From: Candidatus Cloacimonadota bacterium
GTDB lineage: Bacteria > Cloacimonadota > Cloacimonadia > Cloacimonadales > TCS61
DNA length: 64,000 nucleotides
NCBI GenBank assembly: GCA_030445745.1
Contig: JASUTE010000004.1
Span: forward strand, 88,173-152,172
Direction: 5' to 3'
The translations under genes were made by a program, and so were the position numbers. Numbering within the stretch: position 1 is the stretch's first letter; each line of letters starts with the position of its first letter. The notes beneath the pieces are model-generated. The model was not told the origin of the DNA, ran no database searches, and was given only the letters and a program-made list of their open reading frames with translations. Positions 3,183 to 53,748 of the stretch are shown here, piece by piece.

Positions 3183-3262
3183 TCTAACCTCTTAAATTAA
3201 GAAAATATATTTACGAATAAGTTGTATTTATAATTAAAGTCAATAGAAAATATGGAGGTTAT

Positions 3263-18261: not shown

Positions 18262-18264
18262 ATT

Positions 18265-19230
18265 ATGAAAAAGATACTCATATTTTTAGCGATTTTAAGT
18301 TTATTCGCTTGTGATGATTCTATTTCCAAGCTTAGTCTAGATAATACAGCTCCTAACCCGGTTTCTAATTTGCAAATATTAGAAACGGGAGGAGATTATG
18401 TGAAGTTGATATGGAGTGTACCAGATTCCAAAGATGCTGCTTTTTACAAAATTTATAAAAAATTAAGTACGGAAACAGAGACTATTACCAACTTTATTTT
18501 TACCGATCAACTTCAAGTTAACTTACAAAACACTCAGCAGGGTATAATTATAGACAGCTTAGCTTTCAGCAATAATTACGATTTTGCCGTTTCGGTGTGC
18601 GATGAAAGCATGAATGAGAGCGAATTACAAAAAATAACAGGTATTGAAACGCTTAACAATAATCCTGTTGACACAACACCTCCAGGTGATATTGCACAGC
18701 TGCAGTTGGTACCTACATTTTCGGAAGGCTATGAGATAATTGACGTAGTTATAACAGCTTCTTTTGTTGCACCAGGCGATGATGGCGATAACGGTATAAC
18801 CGAGATTGAAGTAAGATATTCACCATTTGGACCAGTTAATTCAGATAACTGGCAAACCGCTTTTCCTTATCAGGGTACAGTTTTTAGTGGTATTGCTGGA
18901 GAAACCACAATAATTGAACTTCCCTTGAAAAAATGTATGGCTCCCCCTCCCGTTCCACCCAATTATGCTTTTTATTTTGCTGCCAGAGCTATTGATGAAG
19001 CAGGAAATACTTCGGCTATCAAGAGTTTTTCTGGTAAAATAACCGCAGAAGTTATCCGTAAAAGCTGTATTTCTTGTTGGGAATGTTTAGATATTTGCCC
19101 GGAAAATGCTATCTCCAAACAAAACGGAAAGGCTTCTATCGATTTGAGCAAATGTGTGCGCTGTGGCGATTGTATTTTAACCTGTGAAGAAAAAGGTAAT
19201 GAAGCAATAAAATATTATATAACAGAATAA
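18265..19230 (+). CDS. lipoprotein with FN3-like domains and a C-terminal 2x[4Fe-4S]-type ferredoxin module
   Basis: Lipobox LSLFAC. FN3-like signatures (PNPVSNLQILETGGDYVKLIWSVP; DTTPPGDIAQLQL). Cys motifs CISCWECLDICP and CVRCGDCILTC. Confidence 0.65.
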   Translation: MKKILIFLAILSLFACDDSISKLSLDNTAPNPVSNLQILETGGDYVKLIWSVPDSKDAAFYKIYKKLSTETETITNFIFTDQLQVNLQNTQQGIIIDSLAFSNNYDFAVSVCDESMNESELQKITGIETLNNNPVDTTPPGDIAQLQLVPTFSEGYEIIDVVITASFVAPGDDGDNGITEIEVRYSPFGPVNSDNWQTAFPYQGTVFSGIAGETTIIELPLKKCMAPPPVPPNYAFYFAARAIDEAGNTSAIKSFSGKITAEVIRKSCISCWECLDICPENAISKQNGKASIDLSKCVRCGDCILTCEEKGNEAIKYYITE

Positions 19231-19247
19231 AAGAGAGGTAGGAGAAG

Positions 19248-19787
19248 ATGAAAAAGAAAATAATTTACGCGATAATTTTGCTGTTTGTAATGGCCGTAAC
19301 ACTATATGCTGCTAGGGTTATCTATCAAATAGACCCCGATCAGTGTAATGGTTGTGGTGAGTGTTTTGTACAATGTCCCAATGATGCTATCTATTATGAT
19401 TATGAAGTATGGACTTATCAGATCAATCCAGAATTATGTGATGGTTGCGGAGATTGTGTAGATACTTGTAATCATAATGCTATTCATGAAGTTGTTAGCA
19501 ATGGCAGTGAAGAGATCGATCCTAATTTAAAGATATCTTGTTTCCCCAATCCACTTAGCTCTAATACAACTATTTCTTATGATATGCACAACGGGCAAAA
19601 AGGAGAAATAGTTATCTTTAACATCAAAGGCAGAAAAATTCGTTCTTTTCCAATAGAAAGCCGTACTGGCCAGGTCAGCTGGGATGGAAAGGATAGAGCT
19701 GGCAATGAAGTTGCAGAAGGTATTTATTTCTATAAATTGAAAACCGGCAATAGAAAAGTGATAAAAAGACTAACTGTAATAAAATGA
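19248..19787 (+). CDS. signal-peptide ferredoxin module fused to a T9SS-type C-terminal sorting domain
   Basis: Signal MKKKIIYAIILLFVMAVTLYA. Cys motifs CNGCGECFVQCP and CDGCGDCVDTC. The C-terminal ~85 aa (CFPNPLSSNTTISY...GIYFYKLKTGNRKVIKRLTVIK) match the por_secre_tail / FlgD-Ig-like pattern. Confidence 0.7.
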   Translation: MKKKIIYAIILLFVMAVTLYAARVIYQIDPDQCNGCGECFVQCPNDAIYYDYEVWTYQINPELCDGCGDCVDTCNHNAIHEVVSNGSEEIDPNLKISCFPNPLSSNTTISYDMHNGQKGEIVIFNIKGRKIRSFPIESRTGQVSWDGKDRAGNEVAEGIYFYKLKTGNRKVIKRLTVIK

Positions 19788-32337: not shown

Positions 32338-32948
32338 AGATATTTCCAACTAACTAAGTTTAGAAGCAGAATATAAAAGAGCAAGATAAAATTAGCACTA
32401 TTTGCTATACTCCTAATAGGCAGAGGTTCTGCCAATTTGGCCTCAATTTTCTTTACTATTGAAGGTGAATCCTGAGCAGTTTTGGTAATAGCTTGCAGTG
32501 CAGAATGAAAAATATCACTTTTTATCTGACGAAAATTATTTATAAATGCTGGTATAAACTCCACAGTAGCGGAAATGTAAAGTACAAAAGCAGATTTTTT
32601 GCCAAAGATTGGGGCAATATCTGCTAAGAAGTTATGAAGACTGGTAGTGTGAATAAGATAAACTGAAACCATGACTAAAATTAAAATCTTGGTAGCTGTT
32701 TGTAGTTGAGAAATAAAATCTGAGTCGAACAATATTCCTAACAGAAAAAAAGCTATAAAAAACGGAACCAACTTGAGGCTGGTTCGGAGCCAGGCGATAA
32801 TTAGTGTTGGCTGTAACAGAAAAAAAATAAATTGTGCTATCAGCAAATAACCGATGAATTCAAAACTTGCATGAAATAAATAGAATATTACCGAAATCAA
32901 CAGTAGAAGTTTGAGTAAAAGGTGCTGTTTGGAAAATAAATTATTCAT
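32334..32948 (-). CDS. hypothetical polytopic membrane protein
   Basis: 204 aa with about 5 hydrophobic helices. No family confidently recognised. Confidence 0.4.
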   Translation of the reverse strand: MNNLFSKQHLLLKLLLLISVIFYLFHASFEFIGYLLIAQFIFFLLQPTLIIAWLRTSLKLVPFFIAFFLLGILFDSDFISQLQTATKILILVMVSVYLIHTTSLHNFLADIAPIFGKKSAFVLYISATVEFIPAFINNFRQIKSDIFHSALQAITKTAQDSPSIVKKIEAKLAEPLPIRSIANSANFILLFYILLLNLVSWKYL

Positions 32949-35208
32949 TTTGATTTGGTTTGGTTGTAGGAAGGGGAAGATTGTTTTCCGAATTGCCCAG
33001 AGTATCTGCTATTGCGGGGTTCAATGTGTTAATACTGTCTGGCTTTTGGATTTTTACACTATCGGAATATAACTTGGTGCTATCTTGTAACGCACTTAAA
33101 TTTTTAGCAGTTGCATTCATGCTATCTACCACGGTTTTAGTGCTATCTAGCATTACTTTAGCGCTATCGCTAGCAGCTTGTTCTGCTGCCATTGCCTCTT
33201 TAATTGCCTGCAGGCGATCTTCTTTTATAAATTTTTTGCCATCAAAGAATTTTTGCACTTCATCTTTCCACTCGCTGTCTTCCATGGCTAATATCTGTTT
33301 CCAATATGGTTTAGCCGCCAAAGTATCTTCTCGGATGAAATATTGGATATGCCCCAAAGCATACAGCGCTTTTTGATAAAATCTGTGGGTTGAATCGCTG
33401 GCAATGTTTTCCAATAGTTCTATGGTTTTGGAATAGTTTTCTTCTAAATGTTGCATAGCTTGGTGATATTCGTTTAGCTGTTGCTCTTCCTCTGTTCCAA
33501 ACTCAATTTTCTGGTTATTCAAAAGTTGTCGGCAGGCCCTAGTGTATTTGTTTTCAGGATAATTCTGTTCTAAATATCTGGTAAGGCTATCGGCAGTAGT
33601 GCTATCGTGTTTCACCTTATCATAGATCCAAACTTTTAGAAAATTAGCATGGGGGATACATATATCTTGATAAATTTTATACTCTTTTTGTTTTTGTGAA
33701 ATTTGGTTTTGTAACTCTGTGAATTTAGTTTGTAAGGAATCTATTACTGCATTTTTGCGAGCAACAGAATCGCTAGCAGCGGTTGTGGAATCTATCTTTA
33801 CTGAATCAGCCGGTAAAGAGTTCAAGCTATCTTGTGTTAGTGTAAAGGAAAGTGTATCAATATACACCTCTGTAGAATCTTCAGGCAAGATAACGCTGGA
33901 ATCTGCTACTACTGTGGTCAAGGTGGAATCTGAACTGATGGTTTCTGTTAGGAAGGGATGAGCCAAATGTAAACTATCCAACTGTGCTTGCAAGGAGTCT
34001 AATTCAGCACCTATTAATTCCTTACGTTGAATGATATCATTATAGACAACCAAAGCAGAATCTGGTTGCTGCAAATTCTGCAAATAGAATTCTGCCAGCT
34101 TAAACTGTTGGTCGACTAAAGTTTCGATATCAAGAGTTCTATCTGGGTGGTAATATTGAATAATTTGGCTTGCCACCGAGCTTTTGGAAACTGCTTTTTC
34201 TACAAATTCCGAGTTTCTATCTTGATTTTGCACTTGATTATATTTTTCGATAGCAGCTTCATAATCATGTGTGATTTGGAAGTGCATCTCGCCCCAGTAA
34301 AAATAGGCCTGTGCAGCTACTTTACTGCGTTTATTTTCGTCTATTATTTTTTGGAAAAGTTCTGCTGCTTTTTCGGTTTTCTTCAGGTTTGCCAAACTGC
34401 GGGCAATTAAGAGTTCAATTTTGGGAAAATTAGCAGGGTCAACTTCATCTTTTAAAAGTTCGCGACTTTCTTGCAAAGCTTGGTCGTAATTTTTTAACTC
34501 TAACTGGTTCAAAGCAAGGTAATAGCGAGCATCTAATTTGGTTCTTTTGCTTACTTTGCTATTAATTAACTCGGTAAAGGTATCGCGGGAGCGCTGGTAT
34601 TTTTCCTCTTCCCAATATAATTTTCCTAAATTAAAGAAAGCTTGTTCAAATTCATCCGATTTTGGAAATTTATTAACAATATTATTCAAATAATATTCTG
34701 CTTGCAAATAATTTTCATCATCTTTGTAATATTGAGCCAGTGTGAGTAATATTTGTGGATGGATCTCTTTGAACTCTTTTTTTTGTAATAATTCTTTTAG
34801 CTCTTCAATAGCCTGAGTTTTTTTATTCATCTGGTAATGGCTTTTAGCTAAAAACAGATGTGCTTCTTCGTAAAATTCACTTTCAGGGTAAAATTTAATA
34901 AGTTCTTCGAATTTTTCTATAGCCTGTACATAACCGCGTCCTTTATAATAGAAAGCTTTTCCCATCAACATCAGAGCATCATCGGCATATTTACTATCTT
35001 TGTAATCGGTTAAGATTATCCCACATTTTTTTATAACTTGATTGTATTTGCCAATAGCATTAGAATTTGCCCTGCCGTCATCTCGGCGCGGCATTTCGCT
35101 GGCTTCTTTATAAAGTTTTTTGGCATTGTAAAAAGTGTTGTAGTAGGCATTGAAGTTGGTACAGGAAAAAATAGCAAATATAAGCAACAGGGGAAAATAT
35201 TTTTTCAT
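32941..35208 (-). CDS. TPR-repeat lipoprotein with Asp-Ser-rich low-complexity regions
   Basis: Lipobox IFSC. There are many TPR-like A..Y/F..A repeats in the N-terminal 400 aa, and DS-rich degenerate repeats in the central and C-terminal parts. Confidence 0.7.
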   Translation of the reverse strand: MKKYFPLLLIFAIFSCTNFNAYYNTFYNAKKLYKEASEMPRRDDGRANSNAIGKYNQVIKKCGIILTDYKDSKYADDALMLMGKAFYYKGRGYVQAIEKFEELIKFYPESEFYEEAHLFLAKSHYQMNKKTQAIEELKELLQKKEFKEIHPQILLTLAQYYKDDENYLQAEYYLNNIVNKFPKSDEFEQAFFNLGKLYWEEEKYQRSRDTFTELINSKVSKRTKLDARYYLALNQLELKNYDQALQESRELLKDEVDPANFPKIELLIARSLANLKKTEKAAELFQKIIDENKRSKVAAQAYFYWGEMHFQITHDYEAAIEKYNQVQNQDRNSEFVEKAVSKSSVASQIIQYYHPDRTLDIETLVDQQFKLAEFYLQNLQQPDSALVVYNDIIQRKELIGAELDSLQAQLDSLHLAHPFLTETISSDSTLTTVVADSSVILPEDSTEVYIDTLSFTLTQDSLNSLPADSVKIDSTTAASDSVARKNAVIDSLQTKFTELQNQISQKQKEYKIYQDICIPHANFLKVWIYDKVKHDSTTADSLTRYLEQNYPENKYTRACRQLLNNQKIEFGTEEEQQLNEYHQAMQHLEENYSKTIELLENIASDSTHRFYQKALYALGHIQYFIREDTLAAKPYWKQILAMEDSEWKDEVQKFFDGKKFIKEDRLQAIKEAMAAEQAASDSAKVMLDSTKTVVDSMNATAKNLSALQDSTKLYSDSVKIQKPDSINTLNPAIADTLGNSENNLPLPTTKPNQNE

Positions 35209-36738: not shown

Positions 36739-37395
36739 TTAAAATCTATAATTAAATGTAAGCAGCGGGTTCAGCTGTTTGTTTACTTTTACTTTAACAT
36801 CTACTTCAGTTTGGAGTGCACTTATTCGTAGAGAATTTATAACACTAATAATATGATTTGCTACTATTGCTCCGCTAAAAACCTTGGCGTAATCATCGAA
36901 TTCAAGGCTTCTTTTTTGCAAAATTTTATAATCATGTTGGCGCTCATCAGATTCCCATTTCCAAAAATGAGATTCTGAATAGATATGTTCATCAATAAAT
37001 TGCTGTCGTTCCTCCGGATCTTCAATACTTTCAGCCTGTAGGATGATATTGGCATTGTATCCGCCGGTTTCAAAACCGTAGCTATCATAGTTTTTCAAAT
37101 CGATCCAGAAATCTTGGCTATAATTACCTTGGGGATCTACGTCAGCGTAACGATAAGCGTAATCGTGTGCTGCAGATATTTTCAGGTCAGATTCTTGGGC
37201 AAAGTAGAGTTGCGCCGACCAAAGCAGTATTTCGGAAGCAATAAAAGCGTAACCAGTATTATTGCCCATGGAAATTTCGCCCCAACCTGGCAATATAGCC
37301 GATTTCAAGACATTTATTTTACTATGTTGAGCAGTTAAATTAGTTGTAAATAACAGTAAAAGGGTAATGATGAGTAATTTAGAAATTAATTTCAT
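36739..37395 (-). CDS. envelope protein, paralog 3 of a tandem triplet (PGxG-helix family, DUF5683-like)
   Basis: Signal peptide, ILPGWGEISMGN...EILLWSAQLY, an acidic/aromatic middle (FWKWESDERQHDY), ANHIISVINSLR, and a C-terminal ...LLTFNYRF. Confidence 0.5.
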   Translation of the reverse strand: MKLISKLLIITLLLLFTTNLTAQHSKINVLKSAILPGWGEISMGNNTGYAFIASEILLWSAQLYFAQESDLKISAAHDYAYRYADVDPQGNYSQDFWIDLKNYDSYGFETGGYNANIILQAESIEDPEERQQFIDEHIYSESHFWKWESDERQHDYKILQKRSLEFDDYAKVFSGAIVANHIISVINSLRISALQTEVDVKVKVNKQLNPLLTFNYRF

Positions 37396-38038
37396 ATGAA
37401 ACCTGCATTCCTTTTTTTTGTAAATCTGGTTTTACAGAAAGATTGTTCAGCTTTTCTTTCACATAATTACTGGTAACCATAGCATCGATGGTGGAAACGA
37501 TTCGATTTAGAATAGCTGCTGCAATGGCAAAATTGGCATATATTTCCAAATCTTGTTTTTCGCGCCGCAAATCTTTATATTTTTGCCAATCTTGCGTATT
37601 TTCCCAGTTCCAATTATTTTCTTCAGGTAGCAAATTATTGTTCAAGTAAGTTTCGTAAGCATCCTTATCTTCCAAACCTATCAAAAAATAATTACGTGCA
37701 GTTTGGATGACATCGTTGTTATAATCTTCTAAACTCATATAATCTTGAGCTTTTTGGTAGATAAAATCAGGGCTGTCGGAGTTTAGACCGGCATTATTTT
37801 GGGCAAATTGCTGGTAGGTGTTTATTTTCCAGTTTTTCTCAGCATCTAAGCGCAGATAGGAAAGAATGATAGCTAGTTCTGCACCTAAATAGATGCCACC
37901 TTTGTTGTAGTCTTTTAAATAAAGATGACCACTTCCAGGCACTGCCAGCGAAAATAAAGCTGCTTTGCCAGTGGAAACCTGTGCCAAGGATACAGAACAT
38001 AAACTTAGTAGAATTAAGATAATAAGAAATTTACGCAT
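37379..38038 (-). CDS. envelope protein, paralog 2 of the tandem triplet
   Basis: Signal peptide, AVPGSGHLYLKDYNKGG...AELAIILSYL, WNWENTQDWQKY, LNRIVSTIDAMV, and a C-terminal ...QVSYEINF. Confidence 0.5.
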   Translation of the reverse strand: MRKFLIILILLSLCSVSLAQVSTGKAALFSLAVPGSGHLYLKDYNKGGIYLGAELAIILSYLRLDAEKNWKINTYQQFAQNNAGLNSDSPDFIYQKAQDYMSLEDYNNDVIQTARNYFLIGLEDKDAYETYLNNNLLPEENNWNWENTQDWQKYKDLRREKQDLEIYANFAIAAAILNRIVSTIDAMVTSNYVKEKLNNLSVKPDLQKKGMQVSYEINF

Positions 38039-38041
38039 AGA

Positions 38042-38914
38042 TTAGAACCCTTTAGAAAAAACTAACCCGAGAGAAACTTGGTTGTCTACAAACATAGGTG
38101 ATATCTTCATTTTAAGATTATTTTGTGAAATAGCTTCAAAATTATATTGTTTAGTAACGCGCAGGGCATCGAAAGCACTAATAATATGGTTGAAAACTAT
38201 GCCAAAGCTCATCAAATCGGCTTTGTCGTAATAATCTTCTGCTTCTCTTCTCATATCGATATATTCAGCTCGCATTTCACTGTAGATACCGTTATGATTA
38301 TCGTAGATTTGTTCTTTGCCTACATAATATTGCGAGTTAGGATTTATCGGTTGATTACCTGCCCACTTCTTATAATTAGCACTTTCATCTTCCCAGATCC
38401 AAGTGGCATTTGTCCAAAAACCCTGGGGGTTGGTGCAGTAGATATCGAACCAATCTTGCCAGCCGAAGATATATTTGTTGTATTTCCCAATATCTTCGTA
38501 AAAATGTTGTGAATTTTCATCATCCAGTCTGAAATGATTTTCATAGAAGGGATTATTATTGCTGGCTATAATTAAGTCTTCTTCAGCATGATGTTGACGG
38601 TCTCTATCGTAATAATTATCTGCATAGTCTTGATATGAAGCTTCTTTATCTTCGCCTTCCTGCTGGAAATGATACATTCCATACCATAACCCAATTTCGA
38701 TAAGAGGAAAGATGTAAGTGGTAATGCTTTTGTAGTTGGCATAAGCCTGACCAGTGCCAGGAAAGATAGAACTCATAATCATAGCTTTAGCTGCCGATTT
38801 GGGTTCATATTTAACTTCTATAATATCGTTTATTATCTCTTCATCTTCGTTGTCTTGAGCCACTAGTGGCAACATGAGAGCTGTTACAACCAAAATAACA
38901 AGTAATTTTTTCAT
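38042..38914 (-). CDS. envelope protein, paralog 1 of the tandem triplet (longer Trp/Tyr/Asp-rich insert)
   Basis: Signal peptide, IFPGTGQAYANYKS...IEIGLWYGMY, WIWEDESANYKKW, FNHIISAFDALR, and a C-terminal ...LGLVFSKGF. Confidence 0.5.
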   Translation of the reverse strand: MKKLLVILVVTALMLPLVAQDNEDEEIINDIIEVKYEPKSAAKAMIMSSIFPGTGQAYANYKSITTYIFPLIEIGLWYGMYHFQQEGEDKEASYQDYADNYYDRDRQHHAEEDLIIASNNNPFYENHFRLDDENSQHFYEDIGKYNKYIFGWQDWFDIYCTNPQGFWTNATWIWEDESANYKKWAGNQPINPNSQYYVGKEQIYDNHNGIYSEMRAEYIDMRREAEDYYDKADLMSFGIVFNHIISAFDALRVTKQYNFEAISQNNLKMKISPMFVDNQVSLGLVFSKGF

Positions 38915-38923
38915 AATAAACTC

Positions 38924-41900
38924 CTATTTTATTATGGCTATGGGAACTTTTTGAGTTTCTCCCCGAGAACTGATAACTGCAAAATATACACCCGAGCTGA
39001 ATTTGTCAGTAGAAAACCAGATATCTTTAGAATTCCCATCATTTTTTTCTATATTATCCGAATAAATTTTATGGCCAGCTATGTCAAATATCTTAATTTT
39101 TATATCCGCTTTCGCATTTTTCACTTTTATTCTAAATTCACCTTTTTTAGCTGGATTGGGGAAAGCAAAAGCTGCTAAATTTTCAGTCTCGGATATTGGC
39201 ATATCAATAAAAGCTTCATATAAACCACTGTAGTTATTACGGTAACCTTGCCAAACCAAGGGGTTTACCTGGACGGAATCTTTTCGAGAAGCAAAAAGAT
39301 TATGATTACTATCTTGGTGAAAATAGAAAAGATTTTTCTGAGAACCTTGCCAGAAATAACTGTGTTTATTTGTAAATTCGGAATTGGAAATACTGAATTC
39401 TGGATGCTGATTGCCCAGGTTGTCTATAGCTATACTAGCATCATTGTCGGTACTTAGTACTATCATTGTAGCTTGAGCGAAATTTATAATCTCTGGAAAA
39501 CTGTTAGCAAGTATGTTTTTATTTTCCACATAAGCCGGAAATCCTTCCAATAGTGTACCATCAAGAGTTAGAGCAAAAACTCTGTCCCTTATTCCAAAAG
39601 TGATGTAAACCTGATTTTCGTCTGTCAATTTGCCTAAAGCCAATTGTGAAGCTTCATTGCCCCAGTTTTCTGCTGTAAATATTCTTTCATAATCATTACC
39701 AGATAATTTGTAGATATTCGCTTGCTCATCTTGGATGAAAACAGCAGAATTAGCTGCATTTAAGGTATCATTGTAGCAAACTGGTTCGTAATTGGCAGTA
39801 GAGTGTGGCAGATTGATCTGATGAGTAATTTGTCTATTTTCTATGTCTATGAAATTCACCACATTATCGGTAACAGCGATCAACTGGGAATTGTTGTACG
39901 CCAGTTTTGCCGCTGGTAAATCGAACTGGCTCTCTCCTATATATAGTATTTCCGCAGTAGCCACTACTTTCTGTGAGATTTCGGGAAGATAGAGAGGAGG
40001 TGAAGTTATTTCAGTTGGATACTCATTTTCGGAAATATATTCGTCAGAAACAATAGTAAGTTTATTGTTTGCTACTAAATAAAATTCATTATTAGGAGAT
40101 TTTCTGCCAACTGTAATTGGTTGAGTCAACTCACCAGTATATTCTTCTTCCCACTGTAAATGATTAGCTACAGTATTATTTATGATGGAAAAGAGCTCTA
40201 CTTTATTATCTTCCACAACTGGGAAGGTAGGAAAATCATAAATATTACCAACTGGACCGATAGCTTGCAGAAAATCGTATTCAGCTATTTTACTAGTATT
40301 TTGGAAGTACTGCGTACCCAGTTTGAAGCTGATTGTTCGAGTTTGATCGGCCTGCAGGCTGCAGCTACCAATATCGTACACACGGTAGATGGAGTTTTGA
40401 CCGGAATTAAGCTGCAGTGCCGGTTCACTAGTTGACGAAAGCTCGTCGTTAAAAGTAGGAAGTGTTTGCCCAGCAGCATAATTTATGTCCCAATTCAAAA
40501 AATAACCATCACTGCTGAGTTCAGGAAGATATCTGTGGTAGGGCTCATAAGCTGTGCCCCGCCAATATTGAGAATAAGCATTACCAATATCCGGCAGGTT
40601 GTCTGCTTCTATTATTTTTACAGCACGATTGGAATGACTGGTATTTACACTATTGTTGGCAAAGTTATTATTCTCGTACAAAATCTTCTGATCGATATGC
40701 CAAACTACTATGCCACCACCTACAGCCTCTCCGGTGCTCTTTTGCCAGCCGGGTAAAAGATAGTCATATTCATATGTGGGCTGGTCATAAGGATCATCAA
40801 AACGGCAAGGATAAAGAGCAACTCTGTTACCGGAAGTGGTTACAACCGATGTTCCGCCATCACCATCTGAATCTACTTGCCGATTTTCCAAAAGAAGATA
40901 TTCTTCATTTCCCAATGGGATCTTTACAAAATATGGGTTTTCGCAGTTTTCTGTAAGTTTTTTTTCAACTGGTTCTAAAATGATCTCTTCGTCAAAAGTT
41001 AAATCAGAGGCATTTTTATAGATTCTTTCTTGTTGGAATTCATTTTCCCACACCAGTAACCGAGTCCAAACACTGGGTAAAGTAGGCAGGACGCCTTCTA
41101 TATAAAATAGTTTATCATCTTGTCCGTCGCCATCGGTATCTTGCACAACACCAGAAAGCCCAGCTCCGCCACTATCCATAATATCCCAATAACCTACTTC
41201 TGGTCTATGATTGTAAGTATTGTATAGATCTACAAAGCCCAAAGAATGACCAAATTCATGAGCCATAACTGCATTAATAACTCCATAATTGTAAACAATA
41301 GGCATTGAATTAGTTTCGTATTGTTCTATATCTTGCGTTATTGTTTCAGGTACATTACAAGCATAGTCTATCATCACAGTACCATCATCTACGTAAACTT
41401 CTTTTCCGTCTCCCATGGTAATAAAGAAAGATGGCATGTCATTGGGTGAATTACCCAAAACATCATGCTGCCAGTCCGAACCAGCGTGAATTAGCATAAA
41501 ATGATCGTATTGGGAAAAATCTATCTGAGGCGAGGTTTGATCGGCGATATGGAAACAATCGGCAAAGTATTCCTCGAATCTACTAACCATTAGTTGTTGA
41601 TCAGATGTACCTGGTGAATAATAGGACAATTTATGGGGTAAGGTATAGGCATTAAATTCACCAGATTTAGAAACTGGAAAGATATCGTAGTTCAAATTAA
41701 AATTACCAAAACTGACAGCTTTGTAATAATATCGCAGACTAGTTAGTTGATCGCTAAAAAACTGATAGTTATGAGGAGGTTTTCCCAAACTGGGTTGGTA
41801 TCCCGTGGTATCTTGCACAAATTGACCATTGCCAGTGGTAGTGCTGGTTGTATCTGGTTGAAATTGAACTAAAAGCACAAGAAGATTTTCAAAGTTCCTA

Positions 41901-42067
41901 GATTTTGCTAAGATCTCTCTTTTACCAACACCAGAAAATTCTGTTTCCAGTGGATGCACATTTTTTTCCTCTATTTGAGGATATGATATTTTTTGCAGCT
42001 TCATTTTCTCAGCTATTGCTAACTGAGAAAACAGCAGCAGACAAAATATTAAGCTGAAACGCTTCAT
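38924..42067 (-). CDS. M6 (immune inhibitor A-like) family metalloprotease with a T9SS-type C-terminal sorting domain
   Basis: 1047 aa with a signal peptide and the zinc motif VMAHEFGHSLGFVDLY. The C-terminal ~80 aa (AFAFPNPAKKGEF...SGVYFAVISSRGETQKVPIAIIK) fit the por_secre_tail pattern. TAATG overlap with the upstream gene. Confidence 0.8.
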   Translation of the reverse strand: MKRFSLIFCLLLFSQLAIAEKMKLQKISYPQIEEKNVHPLETEFSGVGKREILAKSRNFENLLVLLVQFQPDTTSTTTGNGQFVQDTTGYQPSLGKPPHNYQFFSDQLTSLRYYYKAVSFGNFNLNYDIFPVSKSGEFNAYTLPHKLSYYSPGTSDQQLMVSRFEEYFADCFHIADQTSPQIDFSQYDHFMLIHAGSDWQHDVLGNSPNDMPSFFITMGDGKEVYVDDGTVMIDYACNVPETITQDIEQYETNSMPIVYNYGVINAVMAHEFGHSLGFVDLYNTYNHRPEVGYWDIMDSGGAGLSGVVQDTDGDGQDDKLFYIEGVLPTLPSVWTRLLVWENEFQQERIYKNASDLTFDEEIILEPVEKKLTENCENPYFVKIPLGNEEYLLLENRQVDSDGDGGTSVVTTSGNRVALYPCRFDDPYDQPTYEYDYLLPGWQKSTGEAVGGGIVVWHIDQKILYENNNFANNSVNTSHSNRAVKIIEADNLPDIGNAYSQYWRGTAYEPYHRYLPELSSDGYFLNWDINYAAGQTLPTFNDELSSTSEPALQLNSGQNSIYRVYDIGSCSLQADQTRTISFKLGTQYFQNTSKIAEYDFLQAIGPVGNIYDFPTFPVVEDNKVELFSIINNTVANHLQWEEEYTGELTQPITVGRKSPNNEFYLVANNKLTIVSDEYISENEYPTEITSPPLYLPEISQKVVATAEILYIGESQFDLPAAKLAYNNSQLIAVTDNVVNFIDIENRQITHQINLPHSTANYEPVCYNDTLNAANSAVFIQDEQANIYKLSGNDYERIFTAENWGNEASQLALGKLTDENQVYITFGIRDRVFALTLDGTLLEGFPAYVENKNILANSFPEIINFAQATMIVLSTDNDASIAIDNLGNQHPEFSISNSEFTNKHSYFWQGSQKNLFYFHQDSNHNLFASRKDSVQVNPLVWQGYRNNYSGLYEAFIDMPISETENLAAFAFPNPAKKGEFRIKVKNAKADIKIKIFDIAGHKIYSDNIEKNDGNSKDIWFSTDKFSSGVYFAVISSRGETQKVPIAIIK

Positions 42068-43116
42068 TAAAATTCTAATTTAGCAGAGAAAGTTTTGTTA
42101 TAGTCTGTCATTTCACCAGCCGGCTGCATGGCAAAGTCAATTGATAACTTGTATTTTCCCGAAAATGCATAATGAATACCGCCACCAAAAGAGAAGCCGT
42201 CGATAGCACCAGCCTCATCGTAGATGTAACCTGTTCTTAAGGAAAGAAGATCCAAATATACATATTCTGCACCACAGTTGTAGATAGGAGCATCACCGCC
42301 CCAAGCTGTAAATAGTCTCTGGTAAAAAGCATCATCATTATCGGTTGCTAGCACTTTATTAAAATCGGCATTAATGGTGAATTTGTTCATCTGTGTCTCT
42401 AGAACTCGGTAGGAAATTCCCATTCTCCAGTTCATAGGCAATTGGTCCGATTGAGATTCATTGATATAGGTGATGTTTGGGCCCACATTTTGCAAGTTCA
42501 AGCCAGCATCAAGTCCTCTGAGGAAAAGGTCTTTTCTTTTTACACCAAAGTCGAAAGCATAACTCATTCCACGTCCTTTTACCCCAGATTCTGTTTCTCC
42601 TTGTCCTTCTGGTGCAAGGTCACTGTAGATGAATTTAAAAGTAATACCCAAGCCTGTTTTGGGATTTAACTGATAGCCATAGCTAATAGCAGGGGCGGCT
42701 TCCCAACTGCTAAAAGTGCCTTGGTAATTTCCTTCGGAATCGTATTCTTCCTGTTCGCCGTAGGTCATAAAGATCATATTAAAACCTATATTTCCAATAT
42801 TTTCATAATATTTGTTCCACCCGATATATTCATAATACATATCGTTGATATCGGAAACATCACCCAGCCAGTTTGTATGCATCCAGGCAAATTGATTTTT
42901 TCTGTTAAAAGCCATAGCCCCTGGATTCCAATAACCAGCATAAGCATCATCTACTTGTGCCACGTAAGCAGAACCCATAGCTCCAGCACGGGAACTTGGT
43001 TCTATAAGTAAAAAGATAACGGCAGATTGAGATACAGCAGTGGCTGTAGCGGGGATAAGTAATGACAAGATCATTGCGATCAGTATCCATTTAGATTTCA
43101 TAAAATTCCTCCACAA
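42067..43116 (-). CDS. PorV/PorQ-like outer-membrane beta-barrel protein
   Basis: Signal peptide present. The N-terminal motif FLLIEPSSRAGAMGSAYVAQVDDAYAGYWNPGAMAF matches the PorV/PorQ (UPF0164-like) signature. The C-terminal ...FSAKLEF is an OMP beta-signal. Confidence 0.7.
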   Translation of the reverse strand: MWRNFMKSKWILIAMILSLLIPATATAVSQSAVIFLLIEPSSRAGAMGSAYVAQVDDAYAGYWNPGAMAFNRKNQFAWMHTNWLGDVSDINDMYYEYIGWNKYYENIGNIGFNMIFMTYGEQEEYDSEGNYQGTFSSWEAAPAISYGYQLNPKTGLGITFKFIYSDLAPEGQGETESGVKGRGMSYAFDFGVKRKDLFLRGLDAGLNLQNVGPNITYINESQSDQLPMNWRMGISYRVLETQMNKFTINADFNKVLATDNDDAFYQRLFTAWGGDAPIYNCGAEYVYLDLLSLRTGYIYDEAGAIDGFSFGGGIHYAFSGKYKLSIDFAMQPAGEMTDYNKTFSAKLEF

Positions 43117-43199: not shown

Positions 43200-43287
43200 T
43201 GGTGCCGAAGGCCGGACTCGAACCGGCAAGAGCTAAAAGCTCGGTGGATTTTGAGTCCACTGCGTCTACCAATTTCACCACTTCGGC
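43200..43287 (-). tRNA. tRNA-Leu (anticodon CAA), class II with long variable arm, CCA encoded
   Basis: The minus strand reads GCCGAAGTGGTGAAATTGGTAGACGCAGTGGACTCAAAATCCACCGAGCTTTTAGCTCTTGCCGGTTCGAGTCCGGCCTTCGGCACCA. The acceptor stem is 7 bp (GCCGAAG/CTTCGGC), the anticodon loop is CTCAAAA, the T-loop is GGTTCGAGTCC, and the total is 88 nt. Confidence 0.9.
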
Positions 43288-43296
43288 ACATTGGCT

Positions 43297-43327
43297 GTTA
43301 TAAAAAAAACAACCTATCATGTGTCAA
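43297..43327 (-). promoter_or_regulatory. candidate sigma70-type promoter for tRNA-Leu
   Basis: The minus strand has TTGACA (43327-43322), then an 18-19 nt spacer, then TTATAAC, ending about 10 nt before the tRNA 5' end. Confidence 0.35.
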
Positions 43328-43879
43328 GTAAAAATGATTTCCATGCATACCCCGAAATATTTTCATTAGAATGATGGACCGGAGGTGCATCCTAAGTTCA
43401 TACTTGGTAATCCTAACTAATTTTCTATACAACCTTACGTAATTATAACATATCTAACAACTAGAGCGAGGTTATAGTAGATAAATTTTCCCTGCAAATT
43501 TTTAATCATATTTTTTCTGTGAACCGCATAGAAATGCTCCTTTTATTATTTTTTTTATTAGAATTAATATGATAGAGCATTTCTTTGCAGCTATTTTTTA
43601 ATGATTTTCATTAAGACTATCCATTTTTTTCAATAGATTACCTTATCATAAATCTGCTTTTTTAGAGTAAGGGTAATAAAACTAGAATATTTATCAAGTT
43701 AGTCATCAAGTTAGTCATCTTGATTTGCAGATAGACTTATGAGCTAACTGGCATATCCTGGTTATTTTCTATTTTATCTAATCCAATTCGAGGTTTTCAG
43801 CAGGCGAAGTTAGCCGAGGTATAAAAAAATCATAGACATATAGAAATTAATTTCAACTTTTGTGTTACAGGAGGGTAAG

Positions 43880-44347
43880 GTGAATAAATTTCCCATTTAT
43901 CTATTAATTTTGCTAATTTTAGCTGGTTGCAGTTCTACAGCTAAGTATAAAACCAACAGCAACAGATACAGCGGTTACACCAGAGGTTATGGCAATACAG
44001 TTACTAAAACAACGACGACAAACCAGCAGAAATTCCACCAAGGAGAAGTATTATATCTCGTTACTTCCTATTATGGTAAAAAATTCCATGGACACCCGAC
44101 CTCCAATGGTGAAGTTTTCGATATGAATAAATTCACCTGCGCCCACAAGGAATTGCCTTTTAACACCAAATTGCGGGTAACCAATGAAGCCAATATGAAA
44201 TCAGTGGTGGTACGTGTAAACGACCGTGGCCCTTTCATACCTGGTCGCGATTTAGATATTTCCTATGCAGCAGCCCAAAAAATTGGCCTTACAGCTAGCG
44301 GAGTGAAAAAATTGAAAGTAGAAATTTTGGAGTATCCCAATGAATAA
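43880..44347 (+). CDS. rlpA: RlpA-family lipoprotein (DPBB domain, septal ring lytic transglycosylase-like)
   Basis: I prefer the GTG start at 43880, after an AGGAGGG RBS; the track start at 43862 is also possible. Lipobox LILAGC. DPBB motif SYYG..FHG..T.NGE.FD......AH..LPF.T.LRVTN..N...VVVRVNDRGPF. Confidence 0.8.
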   Translation: MNKFPIYLLILLILAGCSSTAKYKTNSNRYSGYTRGYGNTVTKTTTTNQQKFHQGEVLYLVTSYYGKKFHGHPTSNGEVFDMNKFTCAHKELPFNTKLRVTNEANMKSVVVRVNDRGPFIPGRDLDISYAAAQKIGLTASGVKKLKVEILEYPNE

Positions 44348-47758: not shown

Positions 47759-49417
47759 TTAAAATCTACTTTCAACTCCAAAATGCAATAATCCTTGCAT
47801 TGGAGCACTAAATTTTCCGTTTTGATAATTTAAGGCATAATCTAAATGAAATAAACCTAATCTGGTTTGCAACATCAAACCAGCACCAAAACCGCACAAT
47901 AGACCATATTTGTAAACATCATTTTCTATATACCCATGATCGATAAAAATATAACTACGGCTAGTACGAGATAACAAATATCTAAACTCCAAAGTTGTTA
48001 CAGCCGTTCTGTAACCATAAAATTCATTTTCTCTAAATCCACGCAGACTATTGTAGCCGCCTATTTCATAATAATCCAGATCTGTTAAATCCTTATTTTC
48101 TGCTACCTTGATTTTTGTTTGCAAAGCTAAACTAAGTCTATTTTTAATTGGAATATAACGCGCTGCTTCCCACTCTACGGCCTGGTGCGAGTTTTCTTCC
48201 GAACCGCTATCGTTCATGATATAAAAATAGCGTAGTGAAAATGTTTGCCCATCGCGAGGATTTTTGCGATTATCCACATTCCTATATTCCCATAACACAC
48301 CTGTTTTAGTATAATTGCTTTTTTCGTATATTTTAGGTCGGCGGCTTCCCGGGTAAATTCCATTCCATCCCAAAATAATTCCATAACGACTTTTTAGGTC
48401 CGTATAATAAACTTCAGTTTCTACTTCTGTGTCAATGTAGGTAGAATCTACTTCTTCGCGAAATAAGGAAAGATCGGCATTTACTGGCACGCTATTTACT
48501 CCAGTTTCGTGATAGTTCAATTGTACAGAACTGCGAGAAGCTACCAACCTCTGCCATTGTAAAGACAAAGACCGCCCCGTTCCAGATAAATTCATAAACT
48601 GCAAATCCACGAAACCTGTCAGTTGATTGTCTTCCTGGGCCGAATTATCGTAACCTAGCAAAAAAGCTAACTGAGTCATTTTATCTTCTTCAATTTTTAT
48701 AAGCAAATTATCTGAATTTACAGGGATAATTTCTGCATTTTTAATGTATTCTTCATCTTCCAGATTTTCTTCTGCTAAACGAATGAGTTCTGGTGTAAGC
48801 AATTGGTAGTTTTGTAGGCCTGAAAGTCGAATTAAAGTATTTTCGGTAGTCACTTTGTTGCCTTGAAACCTAAAATTCTCAATCTCACAAGGCTTACCCT
48901 CGTTGATTTTTAAAAATACTTTCAGGTTTTCATCTGTTTTTACAATTTTTTGCAAGGAAATAGAAGCAAAAAGAAAACTCTGGTCATTGTAATATTGCAC
49001 TATTTCTTTCATAAATTTGGGAAGCTGTTGCAATTGAGAAACATTTCCAACCTGCTCTCTTAGTTTATTGCTGGTTATATAAGAATTACCGGTAAATTCT
49101 ATACTAGCAATATTGATATTGGCATTTTCTTGTATTGAATAGATAATTTTTAATTTTTGAGCTGGCAAAAACTCTATGTCTGGTTGAAATATTTTGGCAA
49201 AATAGAGTCCTTTGTTTTGATAAAGCCTGCTAAGGCGCTGGGCATCTTCACTAAGTTTTTGTTCGGAATATTCCGCCCCTGGCTTTAAACTTAAAATTTT
49301 TAAGATCTGTTCATCGTTTATTAGCTGATTACCTTCTAAAACTACATCTTCCACAATAACCTGTGCTACCAGAGAAGTACAAAAAAACATTAGGAAAAGC
49401 AGCTGGCTAATTTTCAT
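47759..49417 (-). CDS. BamA/TamA-family outer-membrane protein (short, reduced POTRA region)
   Basis: Signal peptide, POTRA-like N-terminal repeats, and an Omp85 barrel with ...GGYNSLRGF... and a C-terminal ...LLHFGVESRF. At 552 aa it is shorter than a canonical five-POTRA BamA. Confidence 0.75.
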   Translation of the reverse strand: MKISQLLFLMFFCTSLVAQVIVEDVVLEGNQLINDEQILKILSLKPGAEYSEQKLSEDAQRLSRLYQNKGLYFAKIFQPDIEFLPAQKLKIIYSIQENANINIASIEFTGNSYITSNKLREQVGNVSQLQQLPKFMKEIVQYYNDQSFLFASISLQKIVKTDENLKVFLKINEGKPCEIENFRFQGNKVTTENTLIRLSGLQNYQLLTPELIRLAEENLEDEEYIKNAEIIPVNSDNLLIKIEEDKMTQLAFLLGYDNSAQEDNQLTGFVDLQFMNLSGTGRSLSLQWQRLVASRSSVQLNYHETGVNSVPVNADLSLFREEVDSTYIDTEVETEVYYTDLKSRYGIILGWNGIYPGSRRPKIYEKSNYTKTGVLWEYRNVDNRKNPRDGQTFSLRYFYIMNDSGSEENSHQAVEWEAARYIPIKNRLSLALQTKIKVAENKDLTDLDYYEIGGYNSLRGFRENEFYGYRTAVTTLEFRYLLSRTSRSYIFIDHGYIENDVYKYGLLCGFGAGLMLQTRLGLFHLDYALNYQNGKFSAPMQGLLHFGVESRF

Positions 49418-50475: not shown

Positions 50476-53400
50476 CTATTTCAAATAAAGCATTCGGCGA
50501 ACATCACAGTTGTGACTAGCTTGCAATTTGATGAAATAAATTCCAGTTGCCAAATCCTGTTGCTGCATATTCCAACTTATTTTGTGCTCACCTGTGCCAA
50601 ATTTACCAACAGCCAATTTTTTGACAAGCTGTCCTTTAATATTGTAAGCATTCAGCTGGATCTTTTGTGGAGATTTCAGTTTAAACTTTATTTCGGTAGA
50701 ACTATTTTTGGCAGAAGTAGGTGTGAAGGGATTGGGATAAACTGCGGTAATTTTAGCTGCTTGCGGTATGAATTCGGGTTGTTGGTCGTTGGCAACCAGC
50801 TCATAATTCAGATCCGTTGTATTTTCTATCATATTGTAATAAAAAGTTACATCTGCTGTTTGGGAAATAGAAAAATTCAAATTGCCACTGGTTGTATTCT
50901 GATCCCAATTGTTATTCAGCACGATTTTGTATTCGTAACTGCCAGCTGGAATTTGCACCAGGCGAGTGAAAATACCGTCTCCGCTCACCTCATCGCCATT
51001 CAAGCCTTCATCGTTCATCACAGTAAGCTCGGTTTGCTCATTCCAATTAGTTCCACCAATTGCTGCCAAAAAATCTCCCGCTACAACTGGTAAATTCGTA
51101 CTATGGCATACATATTCAATACCTTCATAAGTTTCTATTTGAGCTCCGCAATTCACGTAAAATTTTACTTCAGTTGCATCGTCTAAGACAATCGCCTGAT
51201 TTTCGGAAGGATAATCATTATCATCCCAAGCATCACTTTCCACAACTTTGTATTCATGCACACCAGCATCCAGAGCTAAGGTTACTTGCCAAAGTCCATT
51301 ATTTTGCAATATAAGATCATAACTATGGTTATCAACTTGCCACGCATTGAAAGAACCAACCAAATGCGGACGAATCACGTTTACTACAGCTACTGTATTT
51401 TGTTCTGGAGCAATCTCGTTGCCATTCAAATCGGTTATGTTTTGCAAAACAACTTCGCCGAGGTCATCAGCAGAAAAATCGTTATTCGCTGTAAGCACTA
51501 CCCGCCGGTTGTGGGTAAGCACTGCTTCTGCAACGGTGTAGGAACCACTGAAACCTTGCAGCTGATAGTTAGCTTCATTTTCAGCTGCAGCAACATTTAT
51601 AGCTTCCGAAAATGTCAGCTGCAATTTATTTTGACCTACCCAGGCAGCCTGCTCTTGCCAAACTGTGGGTGGAATGTCATCTTCCAAAATAGTTGCCAGG
51701 TTATCTAACTCTTCTACTTTGTTGTTGTATTCATCGTAAGGTGCGCTAGTGTAGCCAGCATACAAAAATAATTTAAAACTAGCACCACCTTTGATCTCAT
51801 CTCCCATCACCAAAGTGCCTTCAAAGGTTGAGTTATGCTGAGCACCGCCGTTTCCTAAAACATAAGCAGCGGTAGCTCCGCTAGTGCTGTTCCTTCTACC
51901 GCAATAACTTCCGAAATCACCCCACATACGCTGCACATTTTCCTTTCCAGACCAAATAAGATCTAGAAGATCGGGGGACCAACCACTTTTCACGTAGGTA
52001 TCGCCACTTCCAGCATATTCTACTTCCAAATAGGAATTACCGGTTTGCAATTTACAGATTTTGGTAACATCATTTTTAGTGAATTCTACTTCTACTTCAT
52101 CACCGCTGGTCTGTAGCAAATTCCATTCGTAAATATCGTGTTGCAAATTGGGTGACGATTCGGAGAGAGCAGCCACATGGTTGTTGGAAGACTCGTTATA
52201 GTCGCCATCTGTTTCCGACCAATAAGCCATATCGGAGCCAACGACTGAGTACTGGCCGCCGTTATCATCTTTAGCAAAAATCCAGTTAGCCTTACCGCCA
52301 ATACTCTCGAACACAGCCATCAGCTTATCGTTATGCATCACTACTTCATCCACTCCATCACGGTCGATATCTTCCAAATAAGCTGCGGTGGTTGCGGCAT
52401 AATCTCCATTAGCCCAGCGCGAAGCTTCGGCATAAACATTGGCATTTTTCATGTGGGCAGAATAACGATGTTCCCAACCAGAGATCTCCTCGCCATCGTG
52501 CCAGCCAGTTTCGTGCAAATTTATCATCAAAGTGTACCAACCCAACTGTGCCAGGTTGTTATCGGGGCAATTTATTAAATTTTCGTAAGCATTATTCCAA
52601 ATAAATCCATAATTCCATTTAGGATCATGAAAATCGGAATGCGATTCGGCACCAGCCCAATGGGTATACCAACCGTTGTTTCCGCCCCCATAACCATCAG
52701 TTCCTCCCAAAAGACCATAAGTACCATGGGTAATATCGGCGGTAACGCCATTGAAATCGGGATTGGTTAATGCATTATCCAGCTTCCAAACATTTACACC
52801 TGGATAGTTATCGTGACAGTACCAGAGAACATTTTCGTAGTTATCTAGGAAAAAGCTGCCGTCGTGTTCGTTCATTTCTGCTGCCACTTCCCAATCTGTA
52901 CCATAAACACAGATGTTATACTGTCCCATGCCGGCAATCTGGTTTTTGACAGCATTGGCGTCGTAGTGCATATTACCGACAAATTCGTTATTTATGGGAA
53001 TCACGCGCAGGTCGATATCGGAGCCATTTGACATCCAGTGTATCTTGCGATTATCGTATCCACTCAAATGAGGCCAGTCATCCAAAACCACGCCCCAAAC
53101 ATCGTGCTGAGTCCAATTATCTCCTAGCCAATCAATTACACCAGCATCGGGATAATAACCCGGAGCTAACCATACTCTTTCGGGGACCCAAGCAACATGG
53201 GGAACGTAGTTGTAGCGGTAATCTACCATGTCACATTCAATATTTACCGACCAATTATTCATTTCATTTTGCACAAAAGGCATTATATGTTGTCCTAAAG
53301 CAGAGGTCATCATCGCTGCCTGGCCATCGGCGGACATCTGAGTAAGCCAGTCGTTGAATTCGGGATTGTGCCATTGAGCAGCTGGCATAAGTGTGCCCGA

Positions 53401-53748
53401 CATATGAAAATTGCCAGGAACACCAGTCGCTTCGTGCACTTCCAAAACCTCATCAAATCCACTTCCATCTAAACCGCTTTCACCACTGGCACTACCATAG
53501 AAAACCTCGGTGTAGGTAAGTCCTTGATTTCCATGATGCACAAAAGCACAGTTGCCAGTATCGCGAGAACGCCTTAGCTTCCCAACAAAACTATCCTGCA
53601 ATTCGCCTTCTAAAACAGTTTTAATACTTATTTGCTTATTTTTGGCTAAATATTTAGGTATTTTTAACTCTAGCAAATTATTTTGTGGTGTACGCAAGAA
53701 ATCATACTCAGCATTTTCGGCGTAAAGCTTGTCCAGATTTAAGCGCAA
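50476..53748 (-). CDS. GH57-like glycoside hydrolase with Ig-like domain, two CBM-like modules and a T9SS C-terminal sorting domain; body of a probably frameshift-split gene
   Basis: GH57-like regions: FVHHGNQG (region I variant), HVAWVPERVW (nucleophile region), VYGTDWE, HETGWHDG. CBM-like repeats: GVHEYKVVESDAWDDNDYP and GSYEYKIVLNNNWDQN. The C-terminal VYPNPFTP...GIYFIKLQASHNCDVRRMLYLK is a sorting domain. No signal peptide follows the annotated TTG start (see findings). Confidence 0.6.
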   Translation of the reverse strand: MRLNLDKLYAENAEYDFLRTPQNNLLELKIPKYLAKNKQISIKTVLEGELQDSFVGKLRRSRDTGNCAFVHHGNQGLTYTEVFYGSASGESGLDGSGFDEVLEVHEATGVPGNFHMSGTLMPAAQWHNPEFNDWLTQMSADGQAAMMTSALGQHIMPFVQNEMNNWSVNIECDMVDYRYNYVPHVAWVPERVWLAPGYYPDAGVIDWLGDNWTQHDVWGVVLDDWPHLSGYDNRKIHWMSNGSDIDLRVIPINNEFVGNMHYDANAVKNQIAGMGQYNICVYGTDWEVAAEMNEHDGSFFLDNYENVLWYCHDNYPGVNVWKLDNALTNPDFNGVTADITHGTYGLLGGTDGYGGGNNGWYTHWAGAESHSDFHDPKWNYGFIWNNAYENLINCPDNNLAQLGWYTLMINLHETGWHDGEEISGWEHRYSAHMKNANVYAEASRWANGDYAATTAAYLEDIDRDGVDEVVMHNDKLMAVFESIGGKANWIFAKDDNGGQYSVVGSDMAYWSETDGDYNESSNNHVAALSESSPNLQHDIYEWNLLQTSGDEVEVEFTKNDVTKICKLQTGNSYLEVEYAGSGDTYVKSGWSPDLLDLIWSGKENVQRMWGDFGSYCGRRNSTSGATAAYVLGNGGAQHNSTFEGTLVMGDEIKGGASFKLFLYAGYTSAPYDEYNNKVEELDNLATILEDDIPPTVWQEQAAWVGQNKLQLTFSEAINVAAAENEANYQLQGFSGSYTVAEAVLTHNRRVVLTANNDFSADDLGEVVLQNITDLNGNEIAPEQNTVAVVNVIRPHLVGSFNAWQVDNHSYDLILQNNGLWQVTLALDAGVHEYKVVESDAWDDNDYPSENQAIVLDDATEVKFYVNCGAQIETYEGIEYVCHSTNLPVVAGDFLAAIGGTNWNEQTELTVMNDEGLNGDEVSGDGIFTRLVQIPAGSYEYKIVLNNNWDQNTTSGNLNFSISQTADVTFYYNMIENTTDLNYELVANDQQPEFIPQAAKITAVYPNPFTPTSAKNSSTEIKFKLKSPQKIQLNAYNIKGQLVKKLAVGKFGTGEHKISWNMQQQDLATGIYFIKLQASHNCDVRRMLYLK

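Follow-up and report, generated by a model that had tools for sequence, protein, structure and literature searches.

We analysed a 64,000-nucleotide stretch (hereafter the window) of contig JASUTE010000004.1 from a Candidatus Cloacimonadota bacterium, and describe a compact module of five minus-strand genes within it. The genes encode an outer-membrane beta-barrel of the PorV type, a secreted M6-type metalloprotease-like protein with a beta-propeller region and a type A C-terminal domain (CTD) for T9SS (type IX secretion system) sorting, and three small exported paralogs that we call Par1, Par2 and Par3. We read the module as a putative PorV-centred outer-membrane or surface subcomplex of the T9SS and not as a dedicated cargo unit; this is the interpretation we favour, with measured confidence, from sequence comparisons. 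It draws on the phylum-wide constancy of the module, the place of related genes behind porU in other phyla, the persistence of catalytically dead copies at the same position and the co-conservation of the exported partners. All four features fit a part of the secretion machinery better than an ordinary cargo, with the porU link seen in half of the loci sampled outside the phylum. A literature search found no paper on the module.

The module opens with the PorV gene (42067..43101, minus strand; 344 amino acids) and continues on the same strand with the genes for the M6 protein (38924..42067; 1047 amino acids), Par1 (38042..38914; 290 amino acids), Par2 (37379..38038; 219 amino acids) and Par3 (36739..37395; 218 amino acids). 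All five proteins are predicted from their sequences to carry Sec signal peptides. The first-pass annotation of this DNA had placed five minus-strand open reading frames here, joined by very short junctions; all five are present, and every junction proved correct when the sequence was read directly. The stop codon of PorV overlaps the start codon of the M6 gene as TAATG. The spacer is 9 nucleotides (nt) long between the M6 gene and par1 and 3 nt long between par1 and par2; the end of par2 shares 17 nt with the start of par3, and hutH, with a TTG start codon, begins 11 nt after par3. One start had to be moved. The reading frame of PorV, which had been described as a PorV/PorQ-like barrel beginning at 43116, can indeed be extended to a TTG at that position, and the ATG at 43101 is preceded by a GGAGG ribosome-binding site and yields a protein of 344 amino acids. 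This is also the PorV length called on a Logan contig, the only public contig with an identical protein. We therefore regard the ATG at 43101 as the more likely start. Upstream of PorV lies the conserved 5' neighbour of the module, a tRNA-Leu(CAA) gene (43200..43287, minus strand) detected by both ARAGORN and Rfam, and the sole match of the Rfam search. A promoter scan of the locus gave a signal at chance level. Terminator-like sites numbered 18 against 9 expected, with none between the tRNA gene and PorV and none at the module junctions.

The arrangement is highly conserved in Cloacimonadota. A scan of species-representative genomes recovered 80 loci, all of them Cloacimonadota except one mislabelled bin and two tagged 'uncultured bacterium', and we searched the open reading frames of these loci, with flanks of about 10 kb, with the window proteins. 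The order PorV, M6, par1, par2, par3 on one strand is found in essentially all loci that extend far enough to display it, even where the identity of the M6 protein has fallen to about 30%, and the five-gene order stands across about 60 species-level genomes. The spacing of the small genes is similarly constant. The median gap between par1 and par2 is 2 nt (30 nt or less in 56 of 59 loci) and that between par2 and par3 is -17 nt, with an overlap of exactly 17 nt in 31 loci, whereas the median gap from M6 to par1 is 22 nt and that from PorV to M6 is 57 nt. The picture of a tightly packed five-gene unit thus survives comparison, but the TAATG overlap of PorV and M6, to which the first-pass annotation had given weight, is peculiar to the window lineage.

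On its 5' side the module keeps its tRNA: in 66 of 67 Cloacimonadota loci PorV is preceded on its own strand, at a distance of 73-233 nt, by a tRNA-Leu(CAA) gene, which may supply the porV promoter or be co-transcribed with the module. The tRNA gene was not found upstream of PorV in KSB1, Zixibacteria or the two other loci checked outside the phylum. Beyond the segment from tRNA-Leu to par3 the flanks depend on the clade and contain mfd, uppP, holA, alaS, or hutH with a gene for a tetratricopeptide repeat (TPR) protein. In the window clade and in the deepest clades the module is followed by hutH, the TPR gene, a membrane protein gene and truA; in the remaining clades unrelated housekeeping genes follow, and in Cloacimonadaceae-type loci hutH does not adjoin the module. 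Because the genes outside the unit differ between clades, hutH is a lineage-specific neighbour and not a part of the unit. Two different hutH-like genes stand in tandem after the module in many related loci (L004, 14197-17261; L005, L011, L018, L064 and L074-L076), scoring about 400 and 740 bits to the window hutH; the window carries one. In the window, the tRNA gene is preceded by a 570-nt AT-rich stretch between divergent genes (43288-43861) with no open reading frame of 80 or more amino acids and no Rfam match at the gathering threshold.

Related modules exist outside the phylum. An exhaustive search with a profile of the M6 protein collected 739 representative clusters at E <= 1e-30. The scores drop sharply from Cloacimonadota proteins (at least 727 bits) to relatives of 1020-1170 amino acids at about 350 bits, eight of which we examined together with their neighbours (loci L082, L083 and L085-L090; from named cluster members, L083 is KSB1 and L086 Zixibacteria). 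In all eight, PorV is followed by the M6-like gene and then by at least one DUF5683-like or similarly sized gene. Four loci (L082, L086, L088 and L090) share the order C25 protein, PorV, M6-like protein, two genes of about 260-300 amino acids and an NHL protein. The C25 protein of L082, the only one of the four tested, qualifies as a true PorU, with 503.6 bits to NF033707 (cut-off 420). In three others (L083, L085 and L087) PorV is followed by an M6-like protein without HEXXH, a Peptidase_MA_2/Tricorn-like protein of about 1000 amino acids and two small genes, and in the short contig of L089 by the M6-like gene and a 271-amino-acid gene at the contig end. The small genes were compared with the Cloacimonadota profiles in two loci, L082 and the KSB1 locus L083, and are of the par1 and par2 types in both, at 85-135 bits; the par1-type genes after the M6 homologue score 85-101 bits.

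Of 245 long M6 homologues, 210 have an intact zinc motif; it is lost in a distinct subset of homologues outside Cloacimonadota. Full-length homologues without HEXXH nevertheless keep their operon position in KSB1 and other lineages. This persistence beside PorV suggests conservation of a role independent of catalysis. In three lineages the gene directly after the HEXXH-less one encodes the Peptidase_MA_2/Tricorn/PD40-like protein of about 1000 amino acids, which has an HExxH-type match of its own (L083, 11146-14193; L085, 11066-14017; L087, 11215-14277); judging from this match, it may compensate for the lost M6 activity. In two loci the string of genes runs further, through an NHL-repeat protein and a protein of about 1088 amino acids with no firm Pfam match to an Omp85/POTRA protein (L082, 12866-18986; L090, 13081-19171), which suggests an even larger conserved envelope operon. 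We also considered whether a 1090-amino-acid cargo gene and an Omp85 gene elsewhere in the window mirror this tail, and dropped the idea because the large proteins are not homologous.

The barrel belongs firmly to the PorV/PorQ family, as had been proposed, with 223.4 bits to NF033709 (cut-off 90) and 76.3 bits to PF19572 (cut-off 27). Within the family it is of the PorV type and not, as the earlier wording allowed, PorQ: the specific models rank PorV (144.8 bits) above PorQ (85.5 bits) and PorV2 (39.3 bits). It matches the solved PorV of F. johnsoniae (PDB 6h3i_F) with an E-value of 1.4e-14. It aligns over its full length to the PorU-adjacent PorV proteins of L082 and L086 at 35-38% identity and about 200 bits, as against 27% identity and 96 bits to a PorQ-like paralog from Cloacimonadota. 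By these comparisons the window barrel is the orthologue of the canonical PorV that adjoins PorU in other FCB (Fibrobacterota-Chlorobiota-Bacteroidota) phyla. Its C-terminus reads SAKLEF, and the terminal residue is F or Y in 75 of 75 family members. One Cloacimonadota genome carries a second gene of the family about 5 kb downstream of the module (L014, 19913-20893, minus strand), which is of the PorQ type (113 bits to PorQ, 77 to PorV).

In the 1047-amino-acid protein a signal peptide is followed by an M6-type metalloprotease region, then by a beta-propeller region and finally by a type A CTD. Its N-terminus is hydrophobic, with a likely cleavage site at AIA|E. The sorting domain (residues 969-1040; 38948..39163, minus strand) scores 40.3 bits to Por_Secre_tail PF18962 (cut-off 27) and 34.8 bits to TIGR04183 (cut-off 23). 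A profile of the orthologues also finds the CTDs of PorZ and of a solved T9SS substrate (8glk_D), and the AlphaFold2 (AF2) model shows the CTD as a confident beta-sandwich. Since a type A CTD is present, the protein is, by sequence, a predicted T9SS substrate. Close homologues are full-length proteins of 1040-1100 amino acids, all from Cloacimonadota.

Profile support for the M6 assignment is marginal overall: Peptidase_M6 PF05547 gives 25.6 bits against a gathering score of 22, TIGR03296 gives 61.3 bits and does not reach its cut-off of 110.8, the orthologue profile matches immune inhibitor A (InhA) weakly (E 4e-4), and a single-sequence search of the PDB with the M6 region returned no match, InhA included. 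The zinc motif itself, HEFGHSLGFVD (residues 270-280; 41228..41260, minus strand), conforms to HEXXHXXGXXD, the signature of the M6 zinc site. H270, E271, H274, G277 and D280 do not vary among 20 orthologues (36-76% identity), and the HEXXHXXGXXD site is kept by every full-length Cloacimonadota homologue that we checked. As part of the subcomplex interpretation we consider the protease probably active in Cloacimonadota. The description of this gene product as an InhA-like protease with an HEFGH motif and a T9SS sorting domain is thus upheld, with the motif and both domains found and M6 recognised marginally. The propeller region (residues ~560-960; 39188..40390, minus strand) is all-beta and modelled in blocks with predicted local distance difference test (pLDDT) values of 83-94, in a model whose mean pLDDT is 69. 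Foldseek matches it to DDB1-type and other multi-propeller proteins, with PorZ (5m11) ranked third, and relatives have FG-GAP Pfam matches in the region.

The three small proteins are paralogous to each other and exported, in agreement with the first-pass annotation. BLASTP among them gives E-values of 8e-6 to 2e-11, and profile-profile comparison gives probabilities of 99.6-100% over the full length. DUF5683 (PF18935, cut-off 26.7) recognises Par1 (36.8 bits) and Par2 (30.0 bits) but not Par3, which has no Pfam match and is connected to the family through Par2 (BLASTP E 2e-11; hhalign E 6.7e-43 over the full length). In the AF2 model of Par2 (pLDDT 88) the signal peptide is followed by a bundle of helices, two of them long, and the C-terminus forms a beta-hairpin. 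A Foldseek search of the PDB with this fold found nothing significant (best E 1.5), and the PDB sequence search with Par2 returned chance matches to antibodies alone. Residues P34, G35, R158, N178 and S182 of Par2 are invariant. The internal helices of the paralogs are moderately hydrophobic and contain invariant polar residues, which makes them unlike classic transmembrane helices. Their C-terminal strands are alternating-hydrophobic and end, like that of PorV, in an aromatic residue: F in 59 of 60 Par1 and 61 of 64 Par2 proteins, and F or W in 51 of 57 Par3 proteins. The models and alignments thus describe the paralogs as homologous, putatively helical exported proteins with an outer-membrane-type C-terminal beta-hairpin, and the signal peptides and C-termini fit the suggestion that they are envelope accessories. 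The deepest lineages have a single par2-type gene and no other copy; par2 is probably the ancestral copy.

Core parts of the T9SS were not found in the window or in the flanks of the related loci. Cloacimonadota are named among the phyla that possibly have a T9SS (PMC11285876). Family scans of 37 open reading frames of the window gave no match to porK/L/M/N or sprA, and none of the frames is long enough for SprA, in line with the earlier statement that the window holds no other core genes. SprA, GldK/L/M/N and PorU were not found in the window or in the ~10-kb flanks of the 80 related loci, and a tblastn search of the window and these loci with a true PorU returned CTD-type matches only. A gingipain-like C25 protein in L004, L005 and L008 was considered as PorU and rejected at 21.5 bits. 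In L005 it is a protease of more than 1200 amino acids (1-3620, minus strand) whose C-terminus lies beyond the locus end, so that a CTD is not visible; L005 also encodes an M1 aminopeptidase with a CTD (3763-6687, minus strand), further T9SS cargo near the module. A TPR lipoprotein of 755 amino acids with the lipobox IFSC (32941-35208, minus strand), whose gene comes after hutH, matches PorW/SprE (NF052312) with an E-value of 5.6e-27. We treat it as a weak lead only: its 94.7 bits compare with a cut-off of 250, the YbgF TPR model scores it equally (92.7 bits) and its PDB sequence search showed no T9SS protein among the matches.

Other type A cargo is encoded in the same window as the module. 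A 1090-amino-acid protein (50476-53748, minus strand) has a choice-of-anchor X domain and a CTD. A protein of 179 amino acids (19248-19787, plus strand) fuses a 4Fe-4S dicluster ferredoxin domain to a type A CTD (TIGR04183, 41.6 bits); its gene closes a cluster of ferredoxin and NapH-like genes (16914-19787). An iron-sulfur protein sent to the cell surface by the T9SS would be unusual.

The PorV of Bacteroidota carries CTD cargo to the PorU-PorV-PorQ-PorZ attachment complex, and the CTD proteins PorU, PorZ and PorA stay bound on PorV or PorQ as components of the T9SS (PMC8754138). By analogy, the M6/propeller protein would cross the outer membrane and probably stay tethered to PorV through an uncleaved CTD. 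Its targets there would be other T9SS cargo or the surface layer, its task their processing, maturation or attachment, and its propeller part the binding module. The paralogs would probably associate as a hetero-oligomer, seated in or beneath the outer membrane, and anchor or assemble the complex there, and the tight overlaps of their genes may keep their amounts matched. The domain order of protease, propeller and CTD argues for such a subcomplex, as these parts recur in PorU, which joins a protease to a CTD, and in PorZ, which joins propellers to a CTD. Curators of NCBIfam, working independently, have placed an M6-like family together with PorU2 and PorV2 in a putative type IX sorting system.

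Several observations weigh against this interpretation. The score of the barrel to the PorV equivalog NF033710 stays under the model's cut-off of 250. In its protease part the AF2 model is of low quality, and pLDDT drops under 50 near the active site. The likeness to PorZ is one that propellers share in general, and its TM-scores (template modelling scores) are low. We know of no M6-like or DUF5683 subunit reported as required for the T9SS of P. gingivalis or F. johnsoniae, the species in which the system has been dissected. The same synteny would also be expected if a very widely conserved cargo were simply expressed along with PorV.

The first-pass annotation saw the module as a dedicated extracellular proteolysis unit of an amino-acid fermenter, in which the M6 protein would be an ordinary cargo that digests environmental protein, PorV would be co-expressed with it and the paralogs would hold it on the surface. 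The zinc site, intact and invariant in Cloacimonadota, agrees with this, as do the type A CTD and the hutH gene that follows in the window lineage and the deepest lineages; secreted peptidases and histidine degradation have also been reported among the functions encoded by Cloacimonadota (PMC8542988). However, catalytically dead homologues hold the same operon position in KSB1 and other lineages, the genes sit in a porU-porV operon in other phyla (C25-led in four of the eight outside loci), and the absence of hutH from beside the module in Cloacimonadaceae-type loci does not favour a nutritional unit either. Nutritional cargo genes usually vary between lineages, which is a further point against it. 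We now consider such a unit unlikely. The associated idea of a special PorV reserved for one cargo fails on the nature of the barrel, a canonical PorV by its orthology, which must also serve the other CTD cargo of the window. A nutritional role fits poorly with dead M6 copies that stay beside PorV and with genes that follow porU in half of the outside loci sampled.

A catalytic role within the secretion system itself would be given if the M6 protein had replaced the C25 sortase PorU in Cloacimonadota and removed the CTD from type A cargo on PorV. In 66 of 67 Cloacimonadota loci the place of PorU upstream of PorV is taken by the tRNA gene, the phylum keeps the M6 site strictly, and the sole C25 protein nearby is, at 21.5 bits, not a PorU. 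The idea has as its one basis that PorU was found neither in the window nor within about 10 kb of the module in the 80 loci, but PorU may be encoded elsewhere in the genome, and in phyla that have both PorU and M6 the latter is no substitute. To our knowledge no metalloprotease performs sortase-like transpeptidation, which also counts against the replacement, and we hold it to be improbable. Just as improbable in our eyes is a broader version, in which the M6/propeller CTD protein and the DUF5683-like proteins would be ancestral, unrecognised attachment subunits of the T9SS in the non-Bacteroidota FCB phyla and the zinc protease would possibly have replaced the sortase non-homologously in Cloacimonadota. 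Least credible of all is a general unit of outer-membrane biogenesis or remodelling, working for example with the beta-barrel assembly machinery (BAM) on lipoproteins or lipopolysaccharide, with a protease merely exported via the T9SS. The paralogs do have BAM-type C-terminal signals, the operon runs on to an Omp85/POTRA gene in L082 and L090, and genes for RlpA (43862-44347) and a BamA-like protein (47759-49417) are near in the window. But the constant partners are T9SS-specific (PorV, the CTD protein and, in four of the eight outside loci, the C25 protein at the PorU position, confirmed as PorU in L082), the Omp85 link is seen in two loci only, and the large proteins adjoining it are not homologous to window genes. 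We give this explanation very little credence.

If the M6/propeller protein and the paralogs are true subunits of a PorV-centred subcomplex, type IX secretion varies more at its surface-attachment step than the current model has it, and DUF5683, an uncharacterised family, gains a testable role. Work on the T9SS comes almost entirely from two Bacteroidota models, and here extra genes are fixed to porV in Cloacimonadota, KSB1, Zixibacteria and at least two further lineages. Cloacimonadota are abundant in anaerobic digesters, so the module bears on the surface display of hydrolytic enzymes there.

Among known systems and families, InhA of Bacillus (MEROPS M6, PDB 4yu5) shares the zinc motif HEXXHXXGXXD with the window protein, but the two are very distant relatives. 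In the window protein a propeller region and a T9SS CTD come in addition, and its gene stands in a different context. DUF5683, an uncharacterised and mostly Bacteroidota family on whose function our literature search found no publication, shares with Par1 and Par2 the region of the N-terminal S-x-x-x-P-G-x-G motif. The window proteins are longer than the 151-position model and form a tandem trio fixed behind PorV and M6.

A close parallel is the PorU-PorV-PorQ-PorZ attachment complex of P. gingivalis and F. johnsoniae (PMC8754138), which, like the module, joins a PorV-family barrel to large CTD proteins. There the protease and the propellers are divided between PorU (protease and CTD) and PorZ (propellers and CTD), whereas the module protein combines the two. 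Its protease is an M6-type zinc enzyme and that of PorU a C25 cysteine protease, no PorU was found near the module in the window or the 80 Cloacimonadota loci, and the three DUF5683-like exported proteins have no described counterpart in the Bacteroidota complex.

Another close relative is a trio of models in the June 2026 release of NCBIfam: NF052323, a T9SS-dependent M6-like inactivated metalloprotease; NF052324, the putative sortase PorU2; and NF052325, the putative type IX sorting system protein PorV2. Our literature search found no paper on this trio. The existence of named M6-like, PorU2 and PorV2 models indicates that the NCBIfam curators have already seen a related system, which pairs a PorV-family barrel with an M6-like CTD protein as the module does. 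The window protein aligns to NF052323 from end to end (residues 54-1046 to model positions 38-1042 of 1043), but with 221.9 bits it stays far under the cut-off of 600; a KSB1 relative (P0271) scores 537 bits. NF052323 describes an inactivated family, whereas the window protein and its full-length Cloacimonadota homologues have an intact zinc site, and the window barrel, with 39.3 bits to NF052325, is of the PorV and not the PorV2 type. The module differs from the NCBIfam trio in its intact zinc site and its PorV-type barrel, and the trio does not cover the three DUF5683-like proteins or the linkage to the tRNA gene.

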